The translations under genes were made by a program, and so were the position numbers. A stretch of 46,506 nucleotides of DNA from Candidatus Nomurabacteria bacterium (lineage in GTDB: Bacteria; Patescibacteriota; Saccharimonadia; Saccharimonadales; Saccharimonadaceae). Below the pieces are notes generated by a model that was not told the DNA's origin, did no database searches, and saw only the letters and a program-made list of their open reading frames with translations. The stretch is from contig JAISJL010000016.1 of assembly GCA_031261545.1 (NCBI GenBank), forward strand, positions 1 to 46,506, read 5' to 3'. This document shows, one piece after another, positions 4,442-9,727 of this stretch; the first letter of the stretch is position 1, and each line of letters starts with the position of its first letter.

Positions 4442-7400
4442 CTAGGATAATCCACAAATCGCCTCAAAATCCAAACTAGCCTCCAATTCACAAAGTTTCT
4501 CTTTAGAAAGATAGCCCTCCTTGATTTTACCGTTTTTATCTTGACCACCAGTGGGCGGATTGGCCTTGAAATAACCGCGTACGGCGATATTGAAAGCGGC
4601 CTGGAGATCGGCGTCAGAGATATGACGGCAGTCAACATATGGGCAGACGTAGATACCGATGTTGCCACGGTCTTTGCCGGCACCAAAGGTTTTGGAGAGT
4701 TCTTGCCAGTTTTTTTCTCGTTTTACTATTTCTATACCTAGACCGTCTTCGTTGGGACGCATGGCTTTATATATCATACCTTTGAGGTCTTTGCCTTTGA
4801 CGGTGTCTCCGGATTTATTGTGTGGAGCGAAGAGGCGGACATAGCGACCACTTTTCAGCTTCGTTTTTAATAGTCCATCTTTATAATCTTCTAATTGATA
4901 ATCGCCATTCTCGTCTAGGTCTAGGCTCGCCCAAGTTTTACATTTTGTGCAGAATTGCGAAGTGCCAGCAGCGGTGGTTTCTTTGGCATAGTTCAACTTT
5001 TCGCCTGGCAATGGTCGAGTTTTTGCCCCTGCCTTGTAGCCTCCCCAACTCGATTTGATTTTTTCATCATTATCGCCGCCACCTTTCAACACATCGGCTT
5101 GCTTGATACTATCATAGATCTTTGCAACTTTCTTACCACCGATTTCAAAACCGCTCACTTCATACTCAAAACTGAGTGTGGCGTTTTTGGATAATGCTAA
5201 ACTTTCAAGTTGATTTCTGTAACTACCGATTAAGCTTTCACGCAGACGAGCAACTTTTGTGTCCATCGCTGTAAAGGTCTGTCGAACTTGGCTGGCTCGC
5301 CAGCTTTTGACTTCGTTTTTTAAGACCTGCTGTTGATTATCGGCGATGAAATCGCTGTCTAATTGTTTAACCTGGTTATCCTCAACCTTAATTAAGCTCC
5401 ATGCTAAACCATATTCACCAATGTCCACGCCGATGAAACGGTTTTTGATGTTTTTGATGTTTTTGGCGTCAAACTCTGGGTTCTCTGGTGGTAATAGCTC
5501 GAATGGTTGCGAAACAAAAATGCGATGGTCTTTTTCGGAAGTTTTCGGATTATCACCAGACCAATCAATATCAACTATCTTCTCTGCGATGACAAATGCG
5601 CCTGACAGTTTCAATTTTGTCTTTTTCTGACTGTGCTTGCCGAAAAACCAACCCAAAAACTGTATCTGGTATCTTGACGAAGCGACTTTGAGCGCGGGAT
5701 ATTTCGCAGTTGTTTTCACAATATCACTTTCTGGACTGTCGGTATTGTCTTTGGCTTTACAGATTTTTGTTAGCGCGACTTTTTTATCATCATCTAGCTC
5801 ATAATTCTTGAACACATAAAAATAACGTTGAACTTCTTTATTTCGCAATTCCTCCGGCTTCTCACCTTTCTTGTGTTTCATATATTGCTTGTCAGGTTTT
5901 TGCAAACCGGCACCAAGCGTAACTTGATTGCCACCCGCAAAAACGTTGTTCTTATTGCCATCCGAACCAGTAGATTGTAGTTGATAACGCACGACAACTT
6001 GTTTTTTACTCAAAATCGCATTGTAGCCAGAAAGTTGCGAAAAAATATAGTTGTTCTCAATCTGGTCTTTTTTATCGGCGTCCGTCATCACGACCGCTAC
6101 AACTGTGCGAGCCAACTGAATAGTGTCTCTGAATAAATTGAGGTTGTTAAAATCTTTCTGGTACTCGCCAAATAATTCTCTAATTCTTGAGAGTTCGACT
6201 AATCTTTCTGCTGTCAGAGTTTTGCTCCATTCAATACACTTAAGCCGATCATCCCGCTCTCTACCACTTAAATAAAATCGCTCGGTATCTTTTTTAATAA
6301 AATTAACGCCAATTTCCGTAGCGATGCTCTCTAAAATATCTTTAACTTGTGTATTGCCATCATAACCGTCTTGCCCAAATCGCTCATAAAATCTCGCCAG
6401 AGTATTTATCGTGCGGCTTCCTTTTTCGTTCTTTTTCAGCCCGTTGGCTTCGTCTTGGTATTTATCTAAGTCGATTGCTTTATCTAAAATATCGCCGACT
6501 TTTTGGATCTCAGTTTTTATCAAAGATTTCAGATTGTAAGTTTGCTCAAAAAGTAGGCGTTTACTTTCGCCATAGAATAACGGTGCAGATTGAATATGCT
6601 TGCTCAAAATCTTCTGCCAGCCCGCTTCGTTGCTCTCGCCGTCTTCGGACTTTGTTCCACCAAGTTTATCATCTAAACTCCCGACTTCGTCGCCAACTTT
6701 TACACCCTTTTTCTTTTTGGTAGCTACGACTTTATTTTGCTGGTTGTGCTCATTCAATTTACTCCTGAGTTCTGCCAACAAACTTTCTAATTTCTCTGTA
6801 AACTCACGGTCGGCGATTTTTTCCACCCAATACTGCACAGTTCTCGCTTCTTCGGTTTTGGTTTTCTTTTTCTCAACCGTCCATGTATTCACAAAAATCT
6901 TGGGCTGCTCGGTTTTGGCGACATAATCCTTAATGTATTCTTTAGTTTCGGTTATTAACTGTTTTTCACTGTCAGTGTTTGTTTGTAATTTTAGAACCTC
7001 ATTAATCTTGTCTAACATTCTATCTAGCTCAATCATCTGTTCAGGTGCTTTTTTGAGCTTCTCTAAACGATTAGAATACCAGCTTTCTAACTTCCCACCG
7101 AAATCGTTTGCGTAATCACCCCACACCTTAACAATTTGCGGTCTCTCTGGTAGAACGTCAGCGATTTTCATTAATTCATCTAATCTGTTTTTTACAGTAT
7201 CCGTATCATAGCTGTCGCCAAAATAACTTTTGCACGCTTTAAGATAATCACGAAAGTCACCTTTTTTGACGAACAAGAACAAATCATTGAGAACGCGAGG
7301 AATATATCCTTGATTTAACGAGTAAAGAGCTATGCGATTACTTGTTTTATCGTCTTTCTTGTTTTCGTCAATCTTGTATTTATCGTTATAGCGCCTAATG

Positions 7401-8128
7401 ATTTCGTCTAACAGCTTCGTTGTGTCTTTTCCGTCAATAATCTCGAAATCTGGGTCGCAATAAAAGGCCGCATTCTTTTGCGACTCTTTTCCAGTATCCT
7501 CATCGACCGCTCTAATTCTGGGGTAATTATCGTTGTTTGGTTTTTGTAACCCGAACAGCCCGAATTTGTCTTTTTTGTTTTCTCGATACTTTTTAATTAT
7601 TTCTTTGACCTTTTCGTCGTCTTTATGTTTCTCGTCACTCAACAAATTCGCTATTTGGTTTTTCAATTTGTCGTCAGTGGTTTTCGCTGTTCCGCTTTTT
7701 ACAAACTCACACCATTTATCTTTTTTAAGTTTGTCCCGTAAATTATCGTCTATCGTGTCAAAAAGATTTGGCAAAAGTTGCTCGGAAAAATCATTTGGAG
7801 CGTGCGACTGTTTAGAAAAAATAAAACCTAAACTGAGTGCCTTGAGCCAAAACCTGAGGAATGAATATTCGCGCTCGCCATTCGCGATTTGCTCGTTGGT
7901 TTTTTCTGCTCGCCAAGTGAGATAATCGTTGAGATTAATATTGCCGTAGAGCCATTTGTTGTCGCTAGCCACGGCCTCGGCGATCTTATCACGCAAACCG
8001 GTAATGCCGCTTGGGTCAGCTAGCTCGTATTTGATGGAGCGCATTGAACCAGTTCCCCCAGAATACGCAATGCGCTCGTCGTGCAGACGATAGCCGCGTT
8101 TGCCTTGCGATCGTTTCTGAAACTTCAT
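4442..8128 (-). CDS. cas12d: Type V CRISPR effector nuclease, Cas12d (CasY)-like
   Basis: A ~1230 aa ORF flanking the CRISPR array and cas1. Residues are numbered from the ORF-track TTG at 8182.
- RuvC-I: RFIGVDIGEYGLAW (Asp920, codon 5423-5425).
- RuvC-II: LSFEYEVSGFEIGG (Glu1006).
- RuvC-III: SDADLQAAFNIAVRGY (Asp1190/1192).
- Zinc ribbon: CxxC (C1078/C1081) and CxxxxC (C1180/C1185) between RuvC-II and RuvC-III.
- N-terminal GYRLHDERIAYSGG..MRSIKYEL and SRYQIQFL match my memory of CasY proteins.
- The start is ambiguous: ATG 8128 (chosen), TTG 8146 (preceded by GAGGAGAAGG), or TTG 8182. Confidence 0.88.
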   Translation of the reverse strand: MKFQKRSQGKRGYRLHDERIAYSGGTGSMRSIKYELADPSGITGLRDKIAEAVASDNKWLYGNINLNDYLTWRAEKTNEQIANGEREYSFLRFWLKALSLGFIFSKQSHAPNDFSEQLLPNLFDTIDDNLRDKLKKDKWCEFVKSGTAKTTDDKLKNQIANLLSDEKHKDDEKVKEIIKKYRENKKDKFGLFGLQKPNNDNYPRIRAVDEDTGKESQKNAAFYCDPDFEIIDGKDTTKLLDEIIRRYNDKYKIDENKKDDKTSNRIALYSLNQGYIPRVLNDLFLFVKKGDFRDYLKACKSYFGDSYDTDTVKNRLDELMKIADVLPERPQIVKVWGDYANDFGGKLESWYSNRLEKLKKAPEQMIELDRMLDKINEVLKLQTNTDSEKQLITETKEYIKDYVAKTEQPKIFVNTWTVEKKKTKTEEARTVQYWVEKIADREFTEKLESLLAELRSKLNEHNQQNKVVATKKKKGVKVGDEVGSLDDKLGGTKSEDGESNEAGWQKILSKHIQSAPLFYGESKRLLFEQTYNLKSLIKTEIQKVGDILDKAIDLDKYQDEANGLKKNEKGSRTINTLARFYERFGQDGYDGNTQVKDILESIATEIGVNFIKKDTERFYLSGRERDDRLKCIEWSKTLTAERLVELSRIRELFGEYQKDFNNLNLFRDTIQLARTVVAVVMTDADKKDQIENNYIFSQLSGYNAILSKKQVVVRYQLQSTGSDGNKNNVFAGGNQVTLGAGLQKPDKQYMKHKKGEKPEELRNKEVQRYFYVFKNYELDDDKKVALTKICKAKDNTDSPESDIVKTTAKYPALKVASSRYQIQFLGWFFGKHSQKKTKLKLSGAFVIAEKIVDIDWSGDNPKTSEKDHRIFVSQPFELLPPENPEFDAKNIKNIKNRFIGVDIGEYGLAWSLIKVEDNQVKQLDSDFIADNQQQVLKNEVKSWRASQVRQTFTAMDTKVARLRESLIGSYRNQLESLALSKNATLSFEYEVSGFEIGGKKVAKIYDSIKQADVLKGGGDNDEKIKSSWGGYKAGAKTRPLPGEKLNYAKETTAAGTSQFCTKCKTWASLDLDENGDYQLEDYKDGLLKTKLKSGRYVRLFAPHNKSGDTVKGKDLKGMIYKAMRPNEDGLGIEIVKREKNWQELSKTFGAGKDRGNIGIYVCPYVDCRHISDADLQAAFNIAVRGYFKANPPTGGQDKNGKIKEGYLSKEKLCELEASLDFEAICGLS

Positions 8129-8172
8129 ATACTGCTTTTTCTTCAAAATGTCCTTCTCCTCTTGACATATAA

Positions 8173-8197
8173 TTAATTGCAATCTGTTATTTTAGAG
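8173..8197. repeat. Left arm of the inverted repeat bracketing the non-coding gap and the CRISPR array
   Basis: aatctgttattttagag (8181-8197) is the exact reverse complement of ctctaaaataacagatt (8522-8538). ttaattgcaa (8173-8182) pairs with ttgcaattaa (8545-8554). Read on the minus strand it contains TAAAAT (8189-8194), 6 nt before TTG 8182. Confidence 0.85.
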
Positions 8198-8358
8198 ACC
8201 ATGAGATAAAGGCTAAGATACTTTCTAGTGAATTCACAAACACTATCATATCTGGAAACATCATGGATTTACTTGAGAAGAAAAGAATAAGCAAAAATTT
8301 TCGGCAACTTCGCTACGCTCGCTGCCGCTTCCAATAAATTGGAACCGCAACGAAGCCC
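8187..8358 (-). ncRNA. Candidate scoutRNA/tracr-like non-coding region between cas12d and the array
   Basis: - Plus strand 8193-8213 (TAGAG-ACCAT-GAGATAAAGGC) is an inverted, degenerate copy of the 3' half of the repeat (TAGAGGAGAAAAGGC in minus sense).
- A minus-strand transcript would therefore carry an anti-repeat.
- Hairpins: ttccaa-taaa-ttggaa (8329-8344) and cggcagc...gttgccg in minus sense (8302-8327), the latter followed by AAAATTTTT.
- There is no ORF. Strand and ends are unverified. Confidence 0.3.
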
Positions 8359-8359
8359 T

Positions 8360-8516
8360 TGCCTTTTCTCCTCTATTTTACGAGGTATTAGTTTGTGTTT
8401 ATATGCCTTTTCTCCTCTATTTTACGAGGTAAAGTTATCCCTATCATGCCTTTTCTCCTCTATTTTACGAGGCCTGTTATCCCACTTGTATGCCTTTTCT
8501 CCTCTATTTTACGAGG
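8360..8516 (-). CRISPR. CRISPR array with 4 identical 26-nt repeats and 3 spacers of 18, 17 and 18 nt
   Basis: - Repeats tgccttttctcctctattttacgagg lie at 8360-8385, 8404-8429, 8447-8472 and 8491-8516.
- Spacers lie at 8386-8403, 8430-8446 and 8473-8490.
- The minus-sense repeat is CCTCGTAAAATAGAGGAGAAAAGGCA, with an internal CCTC/GAGG stem.
- Orientation is inferred from the minus-strand promoter at 8564-8592 and from the type V convention.
- The repeat boundary could shift by 1 nt, because 3 of 4 copies are preceded by 'a'. Confidence 0.93.
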
Positions 8517-8521
8517 AGTTC

Positions 8522-8554
8522 CTCTAAAATAACAGATTATTAACTTGCAATTAA
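8522..8554. repeat. Right arm of the array-bracketing inverted repeat
   Basis: See the left arm. It starts 5 nt after the last repeat. cctctaaaata (8521-8531) can also pair with tattttacgagg (8505-8516) of the adjacent repeat, giving 11 bp with one bulge. Confidence 0.85.
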
Positions 8555-8563
8555 CTACCTACT

Positions 8564-8592
8564 ATATTATCATAAAATACCAGTAATTGCAA
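8564..8592 (-). promoter_or_regulatory. Sigma70-like promoter in the A/T-rich leader, pointing into the CRISPR array
   Basis: Minus sense reads TTGCAA-17 nt-TAATAT. The predicted start is about 40 nt upstream of the first repeat. Confidence 0.45.
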
Positions 8593-8647
8593 CCTTTTTC
8601 ATATTTTGTGTCATATATACATGAAATTTGCTTAAAAATGAAACATT

Positions 8648-8656
8648 TGTTAAAAT
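8648..8656 (+). promoter_or_regulatory. Extended -10 (TGTTAAAAT), 9 nt upstream of the cas1 ATG
   Basis: tttGTTAAAATgattatatcATG. Confidence 0.35.
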
Positions 8657-8665
8657 GATTATATC

Positions 8666-9727
8666 ATGAAATGCAATGTCAAAACCCAAAATCATTCTAA
8701 TCGCGTGCCAATGTGGCTGCCTTACTTACACTCCATTCGAGAAACCAAAAAAGGCATCTTCGAGTTCGTTTTCAATGGTGGCACAGAAATTGTCAACCTA
8801 AACGAAATCTCTTCAATCATGATATATGGCGAAACTGATACGAAATTAGATCAAAAGATCTTGGATAAGATCACACGCAAAGGCATTCCCATAATCATCC
8901 ATCGCCGCAACATGTCGCAGCCAATTTACATCACTGGCGGCTTACGTCCAGACAAAGATGACACCATCACGGAACAACTCGTCAAACGTCAACAATCACG
9001 AACTTCCACACACATCGCTCGTCAACTTTTAATTGCAAAAATGCACTCAATGTCATATTTAATCCCATCAGCCAAAGTTCCACAATTCGCAAACATCAAA
9101 ACCTTACGCAACATTGAAGCCACGCATGCACACAAATATTGGCGTGCCTATTTCACCAAACTTAATCATCCCGAATGGATACGCCGCGACAAAAACCCAG
9201 CCAGCGAAGCACTGGATGGAGCCAGCAAATTTATATCGGGCATAATTTTGCGCTGGATAACCTACCATCATTTAAGTCCATACCATGGTTTTCTTCATGA
9301 GCCGACCGACTATCCAAGTTTAGTCTATGATTTAATGGAACCAACGCGTGGCATCTTTGAGTCAATTTTGCTTCAAGTTTTTATCAACACTAACCAAAAA
9401 GATTGGTTAGTTAATTCCATTTCCGAATTAAAAATGGCCCTCGATGAGCAAATCTACACATCGCTCACGCGTCAAATTGTCACGCGCCAAGAACTTTTAC
9501 ACGGCACAGTTTTATCGTTAAAATATTATCTGCTCGGACGCCAACGCAAATTCCTAATTCCTCTACCAGGCTCACCAAATGGCGGTCGTCCACCAAAAGT
9601 CGAGTTCCTACTTTACGGTCGCCATGCTGGCAAAACGAATTTTTGGGAAAAAGCGGAAATCGCTGCCAACAATGACAAATGGCTCAAACAAAAACCACGA
9701 CATTTTGATCACGATCACCCATTCTAA
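8666..9727 (+). CDS. cas1: CRISPR-associated endonuclease Cas1
   Basis: Cas1 catalytic signature: NIEATHAHKYWRAYF (Glu) and GFLHEPTDYPSLVYDLMEPTRG (His, Asp/Glu). It is adjacent to the array. A later Met (MWLPYL) is a possible alternative start. Confidence 0.9.
   Translation: MKCNVKTQNHSNRVPMWLPYLHSIRETKKGIFEFVFNGGTEIVNLNEISSIMIYGETDTKLDQKILDKITRKGIPIIIHRRNMSQPIYITGGLRPDKDDTITEQLVKRQQSRTSTHIARQLLIAKMHSMSYLIPSAKVPQFANIKTLRNIEATHAHKYWRAYFTKLNHPEWIRRDKNPASEALDGASKFISGIILRWITYHHLSPYHGFLHEPTDYPSLVYDLMEPTRGIFESILLQVFINTNQKDWLVNSISELKMALDEQIYTSLTRQIVTRQELLHGTVLSLKYYLLGRQRKFLIPLPGSPNGGRPPKVEFLLYGRHAGKTNFWEKAEIAANNDKWLKQKPRHFDHDHPF

Follow-up and report, generated by a model that had tools for sequence, protein, structure and literature searches.

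The minus strand of the window, by which we mean the whole stretch of 46,506 nucleotides analyzed, very probably encodes the scoutRNA of a type V-D (Cas12d/CasY) CRISPR system at positions 8266→8199. This assignment is based on the identity of the effector as a Cas12d, the architecture of a validated scoutRNA, covarying stems, a dock fitting the locus's own repeat, and position. As far as can be judged from sequence, the RNA is of a known kind and displays the features by which a scoutRNA is recognizable at that level. A first-pass annotation had proposed that the gap between cas12d and the CRISPR array encodes a co-factor RNA on the crRNA strand. This proposal was borne out by homologs, by covariation and by a second covariance model constructed without the window (R2), which found only 8199-8266 (-) (32 bits, E = 8e-6 in 46.5 kb), the next-best match in the window having E = 0.69. 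Each sequence feature listed in the annotation was found where it had been placed, with the qualifications given below. The functional unit is 8199-8266, and not 8187-8358 as a whole, as had been suggested.

The locus is a compact type V-D CRISPR system with the order leader, array, gap and cas12d on the minus strand. It was compared with 64 loci with Cas12d relatives from metagenomes and genomes and with its two closest relatives, L065 and L066, giving a set of 66. The features of the locus are as follows.

8666..9727, plus strand: cas1, divergent from the leader (Pfam Cas_Cas1, E = 2e-18)
8564..8592, minus strand: predicted pre-crRNA promoter, with -35 TTGCAA at 8587-8592, a 17-nt spacer and an extended -10 TGaTAATAT (hexamer 8564-8569)
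8360..8516, minus strand: CRISPR array with four 26-nt repeats separated by three spacers of 17-18 nt, the crRNA being read in minus sense
8293..8344, minus strand: array trailer, with hairpin UUCCAA-UUUA-UUGGAA at 8329-8344, hairpin CGGCAGC...GUUGCCG at 8302-8327 and AAAAUUUUU at 8293-8301
8199..8266, minus strand: scoutRNA core of 68 nt, CCAUGAUGUUUCCAGAUAUGAUAGUGUUUGUGAAUUCACUAGAAAGUAUCUUAGCCUUUAUCUCAUGG, placed by model R2, homologs, KbCas12d scoutRNA1 and fold
4442..8128, minus strand: cas12d, 1228 aa from ATG 8128, with an alternative start TTG 8146 behind GGAGAAGGA

Homologs of the effector comprise 28 database proteins at E < 1e-90, part of them called Cas12d by NCBI, and the RuvC residues D902, E988 and D1174 of the window Cas12d are invariant across the homolog alignment. 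The window enzyme shares at most ~55% identity with any other Cas12d found. A PDB sequence search with the effector returned Cas12c2 as the sole match, a weak one (E = 0.003), and a Pfam scan of the protein found no family. The longest ORF in the ORF list spans 4442-8182, opening at TTG 8182, and the homolog alignment places the N-terminus at MKFQKRSQGKRGYRLH, corresponding to ATG 8128, or at TTG 8146 behind GGAGAAGGA. The ORF-free gap of 177 nt in the first-pass annotation holds when counted from TTG 8182; with the homolog-supported starts the non-coding gap between array and cas12d measures 213-231 nt. Automatic calls or longest ORFs of cas12d were found to overrun the scoutRNA in L065 and in the window (ORF start 8182). 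The called gene start of L065 (2501) falls inside its scout (2485-2531), the true start lying farther downstream. The divergent layout of cas1 and leader recurs in nearly all related loci.

The repeat copies of the array are located at 8360-8385, 8404-8429, 8447-8472 and 8491-8516, with the minus-sense sequence CCTCGTAAAATAGAGGAGAAAAGGCA. As a minus-strand RNA the repeat reads CCUCGUAAAAUAGAGGAGAAAAGGCA, and its layout of a hairpin plus AAAGGC is that of the KbCas12d crRNA, cuccgaaaguaucggggauaaaggc-spacer. Because of this match in layout (...GAUAAAGGC-spacer) the crRNA sense was set as minus. The same orientation of the array follows from the conserved promoter and leader on the 8516 side, and from the degenerate terminal repeats of relatives, which sit at the scout-proximal end. 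Spacers of 17-18 nt combined with a 26-nt repeat ending in AAAGGC match the hallmark of type V-D, in which spacers measure 17-19 nt. The TGnTAnnnT and -35 blocks of the predicted promoter are conserved across six leaders (the window plus L038, L036, L032, L034 and L042), and the promoter scores 8/12, under the threshold of the generic promoter scan. Transcription of the pre-crRNA would be expected to start near 8557, coinciding with the 5' end of the leader arm described below. Locus L038 (JAISHL010000025.1) has a 26-nt repeat identical to that of the window, and its leader, trailer hairpins and post-scout arm are similar, while its Cas12d is only ~31% identical to the window Cas12d. The RNA module and the effector of these two loci appear to have diverged at very different rates, or to have been exchanged.

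The scoutRNA is probably read from the minus strand, as indicated by the model matches and by stems that contain G·U pairs. From 8266 to 8199 its parts are, in order, the P1 5' strand, J1, the P2 5' strand, an insertion, the P2 3' strand, J2 and the P1 3' strand.

8261..8266, minus strand: P1 5' strand CCAUGA, pairing with 8199-8204
8254..8260, minus strand: J1 UGUUUCC with the conserved UUUCC motif, the T/T/C/C columns being (near-)invariant in alignment A4 (see below) and in the R2 consensus
8216..8253, minus strand: P2 hairpin, in which AGAUAU/GUAUCU closes an apical insertion of 26 nt (8222-8247) with palindrome GUGAAUUCAC
8205..8215, minus strand: J2 UAGCCUUUAUC (also given as UUAGCCUUUAUC), with the dock GCCUUU at 8208-8213
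8199..8204, minus strand: P1 3' strand UCAUGG, placed by covariation, model R2 and fold

Both P1 and P2 are present in the MFE and centroid folds of the 68-mer, as they are in the individual MFE folds of most homologs, and the thermodynamic signal of the 68-mer by itself is weak (z -1.6). The 26-nt insertion in P2, which holds the perfect palindrome GTGAATTCAC, is specific to the window; the nearest relatives, L065 and L066, have 47-nt scouts that lack it. An independent expansion of P2 was observed in L005. The window scout lies 53-71 nt upstream of the cas12d start and downstream of the 4-repeat array, all in one orientation. A promoter and terminator scan revealed no convincing promoter just upstream of the scout and no canonical terminator after it.

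In ~35 distinct sequences of the 66 loci the element immediately precedes cas12d on the cas12d strand, at 8-70 nt from the cas12d start in every scout-bearing locus. Conservation in related loci, as well as covariation across them, had been put forward as checks in the first-pass annotation, and both are observed. A hand-segmented, N-padded alignment (A4) was made of 35 sequences, comprising the window, 33 homologs and KbCas12d scoutRNA1. In A4 98.6% of cells are paired, a percentage inflated by the choice of helices by eye, and double changes occur in 18 of the 21 pairs; the covariation score of 0.748 compares with 0.139 in shuffled controls and no more than 0.094 when partners are slid. The P1 columns are 100% paired with double changes in 9 of 12 pairs over the 35 sequences, and P2 shows double changes in all 9 of its pairs. 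A covariance model built from six sequences with the window left out (R1) gave 25 matches, each just upstream of a cas12d gene; in the window it matched only 8199-8266 (-), with E = 0.026 for a search space of 1.08 Mb. An alignment of 23 of the R1 matches made with the model (A7), from which the window was again left out and which by its making is fitted to the model, shows 92.5% paired cells and double changes in every one of its 15 pairs (7 of 7 in P1), with a score of 0.877 against 0.187. An Rfam scan of 7500-9200 at E up to 10 yielded nothing under E = 1.1, and the matches were irrelevant. Alignment of the raw scouts by MAFFT followed by RNAalifold predicted no pairs, because differences in junction length shift the stems. 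The KbCas12d scout sequence had no match among the fetched loci. In a group of distant Cas12d loci (L019, L024, L026, L027, L029, L045, L047 and L057) the order is scout→cas12d, then cas1← and →array. Their scouts have a GC-rich P1 of 12 bp, with the cas12d start codon 8-30 nt further on.

The repeat ends at its 3' side in AAAGGC, to which the dock GCCUUU (8213→8208) in J2 is complementary over six contiguous Watson-Crick pairs. The dock corresponds to part of what had been read as a degenerate repeat copy in opposite orientation. The plus strand at 8193-8213 does read TAGAG-ACCAT-GAGATAAAGGC, as annotated, and AAAGGC at 8208-8213 is the conserved dock; TAGAG at 8193-8197 belongs to the start of an arm matching the leader, and not to a repeat. 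GCCUU is invariant in 35 aligned sequences, and contiguous Watson-Crick pairing between dock and own repeat ranges from 5 to 10 nt across loci. At position 6 of the dock a change is accompanied by one in the repeat: L012, L051 and L054 have C there opposite G, and L002 has A opposite U. Furthermore, a double change in L042, dock GUCUUU with repeat end AAAGAC, retains the pairing. This stretch of L042 (3690-3891) consists of a leader, a lone degenerate repeat ending in AAAGAC, a window-like trailer and a scout, and looks like an array-less locus. Of 2000 permutations of the repeats among loci, 6 equalled or exceeded own-repeat pairing by energy and 3 did so by length; the kinship of the loci weakens this test. 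By itself neither the 6-nt dock nor the gapped 15-nt resemblance to the repeat is significant: a search of the window with a 13-mer anti-repeat at 3 mismatches gave 24 matches where 17 were expected. The significance of the scout derives from homology and covariation, not from its resemblance to the repeat.

P1 and P2 would leave two single-stranded junctions, a 5' one with GUUUCC and a 3' one with UUAGCCUUU. The dock in the latter would pair with AAAGGC, the anchor that forms the 3' end of each crRNA repeat beside the spacer, and Cas12d is predicted to bind the scout together with the crRNA to form a DNA-cutting complex. By analogy with the family, the window scout would probably bind Cas12d and be required for cleavage. 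As to its origin, the RNA may be co-transcribed and processed, most likely from the leader promoter within a leader-array-scout(-cas12d) transcript that would then be trimmed.

The primary scoutRNA paper, that of Harrington et al. from 2020, reportedly described the scoutRNA of Cas12d (CasY), for example KbCas12d/CasY.1. The family features used here were taken from a KbCas12d preprint and from secondary sources. KbCas12d scoutRNA1 is an RNA of 44 nt, aaagggu-uucc-aguuu-uuaacu-aaacu-uuagccuucc-acccuuu, and KbCas12d scouts were found to be active in vitro, the shortest and best being aaaggguuuccaguuuuuaacuaaacuuuagccuuccacccuuu (bioRxiv 10.1101/2023.12.12.571249). The window scout has the same order of parts (P1, UUUCC junction, P2, UUAGCCUU junction, P1) and has GUUUCCAG and UUAGCCUU in common with scoutRNA1. 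The Kb scout likewise has a GCCUU dock that fits a repeat end AAGGC, and it adjoins cas12d on the crRNA strand. The window scout differs in its length of 68 nt, which results from the 26-nt insertion in P2, and in having six contiguous dock pairs instead of five. It is located downstream of the array, whereas the Kb scout is described as upstream. After the window scout comes an arm with complementarity to the leader. A short dock, of 3-5 nt in the literature, complementary to an anchor at the 3' end of the repeat is a general scoutRNA property (PMC9522604). The scoutRNA/tracrRNA of Cas12c (type V-C; Kurihara et al. 2022, PMC9522604) likewise has a short dock to the spacer-adjacent repeat anchor; it is required along with the crRNA, and its processing is independent of RNase III. 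Compared by description, the Cas12c RNA is longer than the window scout and has three segments pairing with the repeat (PMC9522604).

Between array and scout lies the array trailer. Its hairpin at 8329-8344 (TTCCAATAAATTGGAA) is perfect, as the first-pass annotation had it. The second hairpin, annotated as a 7-bp stem CGGCAAC...GCTGCCG at 8302-8327, was correctly located and is followed in minus sense by AAAAUUUUU (8301→8293) as described; on the plus strand, however, the stem contains an A·C mismatch, which is a G·U pair on the minus strand. Indeed, the hairpin pair folds with -17.6 kcal/mol in minus sense (z -3.35) and with -10.3 kcal/mol in plus sense (z -1.33). Counterparts with changes in the stems were found only in L038, L042 and L066; most scout-bearing loci are without them, and in L065 the scout directly follows the last degenerate repeat. 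The hairpins at 8302-8344 had been taken as part of the co-factor RNA. They are here judged to lie outside the conserved scout, upstream of it in the array trailer. The hairpin with AAAAUUUUU (8293-8327) was rejected as a terminator, four A residues separating stem and U run. Considered as a possible decayed fifth repeat, the hairpin at 8329-8344 starts 17 nt after repeat 4, begins with CC and is identical to the repeat at only 9 of 26 positions in a hand alignment. A pyrimidine tract, UUCUUUUCUUCUC (8287→8275, minus), is located ~10 nt upstream of scout P1, and L066 has CCUUUUCUC in the same place. The tract can pair with the 3' half of the repeat, GAGGAGAAAAGG, by 11-12 bp including G·U, and with the cas12d Shine-Dalgarno region AGAGGAGAAGGA (8151-8162), which is itself repeat-like. 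A role of the tract (8275-8287) as a second anti-repeat or anti-Shine-Dalgarno was discarded, the mismatch count not being significant and conservation being confined to the nearest loci.

TracrRNAs form long repeat:anti-repeat duplexes that are cut by RNase III. Like the window scout, the tracrRNAs of type II and V-B/E/F are non-coding, lie beside the array, carry an anti-repeat and are part of the effector complex. It is conceivable, though unlikely, that the window RNA is tracrRNA-like, with GCCUUU(A)UCUC, perhaps together with the tract UUCUUUUCUUCUC, forming a duplex of at least 10 bp with the repeat (GAGGAGAAAAGGC) and being processed as in type II/V-B. A pairing of 10 nt with one bulge had been annotated, and RNAcofold reproduced it, GCCUUU(A)UCUC with GAGAAAAGGC: given the scout and a crRNA unit, it selected these 6+4 bp with a bulged A, the duplex having -13.4 kcal/mol. 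The close relatives L037 (GCCUUAUCUC) and L038 (GCCUUUCUC) retain YCUC after the dock, dock and repeat pair slightly better when matched than when permuted, and L066 has CCUUUUCUC where the window has the pyrimidine tract. The structure of Cas12c2 had also shown more crRNA-scout pairing than predicted (PMC9522604). The four additional pairs, however, compete with the closing stem of the scout, since the UC needed for them is part of the 3' strand of P1, a strongly covarying stem. For the window dock, foreign repeats (-8.0) are pairing partners at least as good as the own repeat (-7.2). The tract fits the anti-repeat only at 3 mismatches, for which ~17 chance matches are expected in the window; tract and dock overlap in their repeat target, making simultaneous pairing impossible, and the tract is missing from L065 and most loci. 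With six contiguous pairs, or ten with a bulge at the cost of the covarying P1, the window RNA does not fit a tracrRNA as defined by an extended anti-repeat, and the longer pairing is kept as a minor rival. Of the earlier label 'scoutRNA/tracr-like' the first half stands and the second, given a contiguous complementarity of 6 bp, does not.

The conserved element might alternatively act in cis only, forming a structured leader at the 5' end of the cas12d mRNA with a role in stability, translation or autoregulation and without function as a guide cofactor in trans. This is very improbable. It would agree with the element lying, in every locus, on the cas12d strand and 8-70 nt ahead of the cas12d start, with the scan finding no separate promoter or terminator, and with a fold of the 213-nt gap in which the pyrimidine tract pairs with the Shine-Dalgarno region GAGGAGAAGGA. 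However, the homologous KbCas12d RNA is active in vitro when supplied in trans, and likewise as a fusion with the crRNA, and the invariant GCCUU fits the repeat end, not the mRNA, and changes with the repeat in L042. Moreover, a cis role is compatible with a role in trans. Least probable of all is a decayed inverted copy of leader and repeat, giving a plus-strand cr-like regulatory RNA or nothing functional: plus strand 8170-8213 does resemble the leader end plus the 3' half of the repeat (AATCTGTTATTTTAGAG..GAGATAAAGGC), and a -35 TTGACA is present at 8162-8167 on that strand, but every model match is on the cas12d strand, the covarying stems, with their G·U pairs, agree with a minus-sense RNA, the scan yielded no plus-strand promoter at 8162-8167, the repeat-like half and the array are on opposite strands, and the would-be spacer TAAGATACTTTCTAGTG, a 17-mer, has no second match in the window at up to 3 mismatches. 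On these last two grounds a CRISPR repeat-like regulatory RNA was rejected. The dock may well have originated by inverted duplication, which is compatible with its present function in a scout.

Two segments, one in the leader and one after the scout, form an inverted repeat.

8522..8557, minus strand: U arm, formed by the transcribed leader, UAGUUAAUUGCAA..AAUCUGUUAUUUUAGAG, and separated from repeat 1 by 5 nt
8170..8197, minus strand: D arm, CUCUAAAAUAACAGAUUGCAAUUAAUUA, starting 2 nt after the scout, in the cas12d 5' UTR

Complementarity is 100% over 17 nt (8181-8197 with 8522-8538) and 92% over 13 nt (8170-8182 with 8545-8557). The U/D duplex, a 30-bp inverted repeat of 13+17 bp, has an energy of -33.8 kcal/mol, and in the MFE fold of 8560→8160 it is the closing stem (z -7.2). 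Among 20 loci with the order array→scout→cas12d, the inverted repeat beats all 200 shuffles in 16, and a 17th ties with the best shuffle. L065 and L066 also carry a leader/post-scout inverted repeat. Further loci with the inverted repeat besides the window are L038 (162-188/512-538), L036 (1105-1121/1359-1375), L032, L034, L009, L006, L021, L002 and L052. The sequences of the arms differ between loci, and complementarity is kept. RNAalifold, applied to the leader and post-scout segments of seven close loci, predicted the helix unaided, with double changes in 9 of 17 pairs. Arm mismatches on the sense strand comprise 37 G·U against 13 A·C (binomial p = 5e-4). A T run follows the downstream arm in four close relatives; the window lacks one. 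The inverted repeat was not found in six loci with the array beyond cas12d, where scout P1 is 12 bp. An inverted repeat serving as promoter or operator common to cas1 and cas12d is predicted to occur in such loci as well, and its absence there therefore argues against a promoter motif common to both genes.

On these grounds we tentatively suggest, giving the idea slightly less than even odds, that in V-D loci of the layout cas1← leader→array→scout→cas12d the leader and the post-scout segment form a conserved long-range RNA helix of 17-35 bp. Such a helix would enclose the entire pre-crRNA and scoutRNA and could stack on scout P1. It might be cut, for instance by RNase III, and so release the non-coding unit from the cas12d mRNA, it might protect both ends of the precursor, or it might set the 3' end of the scout beside the 5' end of repeat 1. 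In the last respect it would be the natural counterpart of the engineered scout-linker-crRNA single guide. A local alternative structure was also observed: the leader end UAUUUUAGAGG (window 8491-8538, minus) can pair with CCUC(G)UAAAAUA, the 5' half of repeat 1, and the resulting leader-repeat hairpin (-13.2 kcal/mol) would be in competition with the long-range helix. Such leader-repeat hairpins are known from CRISPR arrays (PMC13187072), with roles reported in Cas9 and Cas13 arrays. In rRNA operons, leader-trailer helices are reportedly formed by complementary segments that flank a multi-unit non-coding precursor (PMC11404451, PMC10250234). The likeness lies in flanking complementarity that is kept as pairing and not as sequence; the putative helix of the window differs in that it encloses a CRISPR array and a scoutRNA and abuts an effector mRNA. 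No description of a leader-trailer helix in V-D loci was found in the searchable literature, a search that did not cover the primary scoutRNA paper.

The coordinates, strand and parts of the scout given here are needed for reconstituting the window Cas12d. The same alignment annotates scouts in ~35 other distinct sequences, and it shows the scout always just upstream of cas12d. In reviews the biogenesis of V-D pre-crRNA and scoutRNA is listed as unknown or unconfirmed. The leader-trailer pairing offers a concrete, testable hypothesis for this biogenesis; it is the part of the locus that deserves follow-up, and it may be new.
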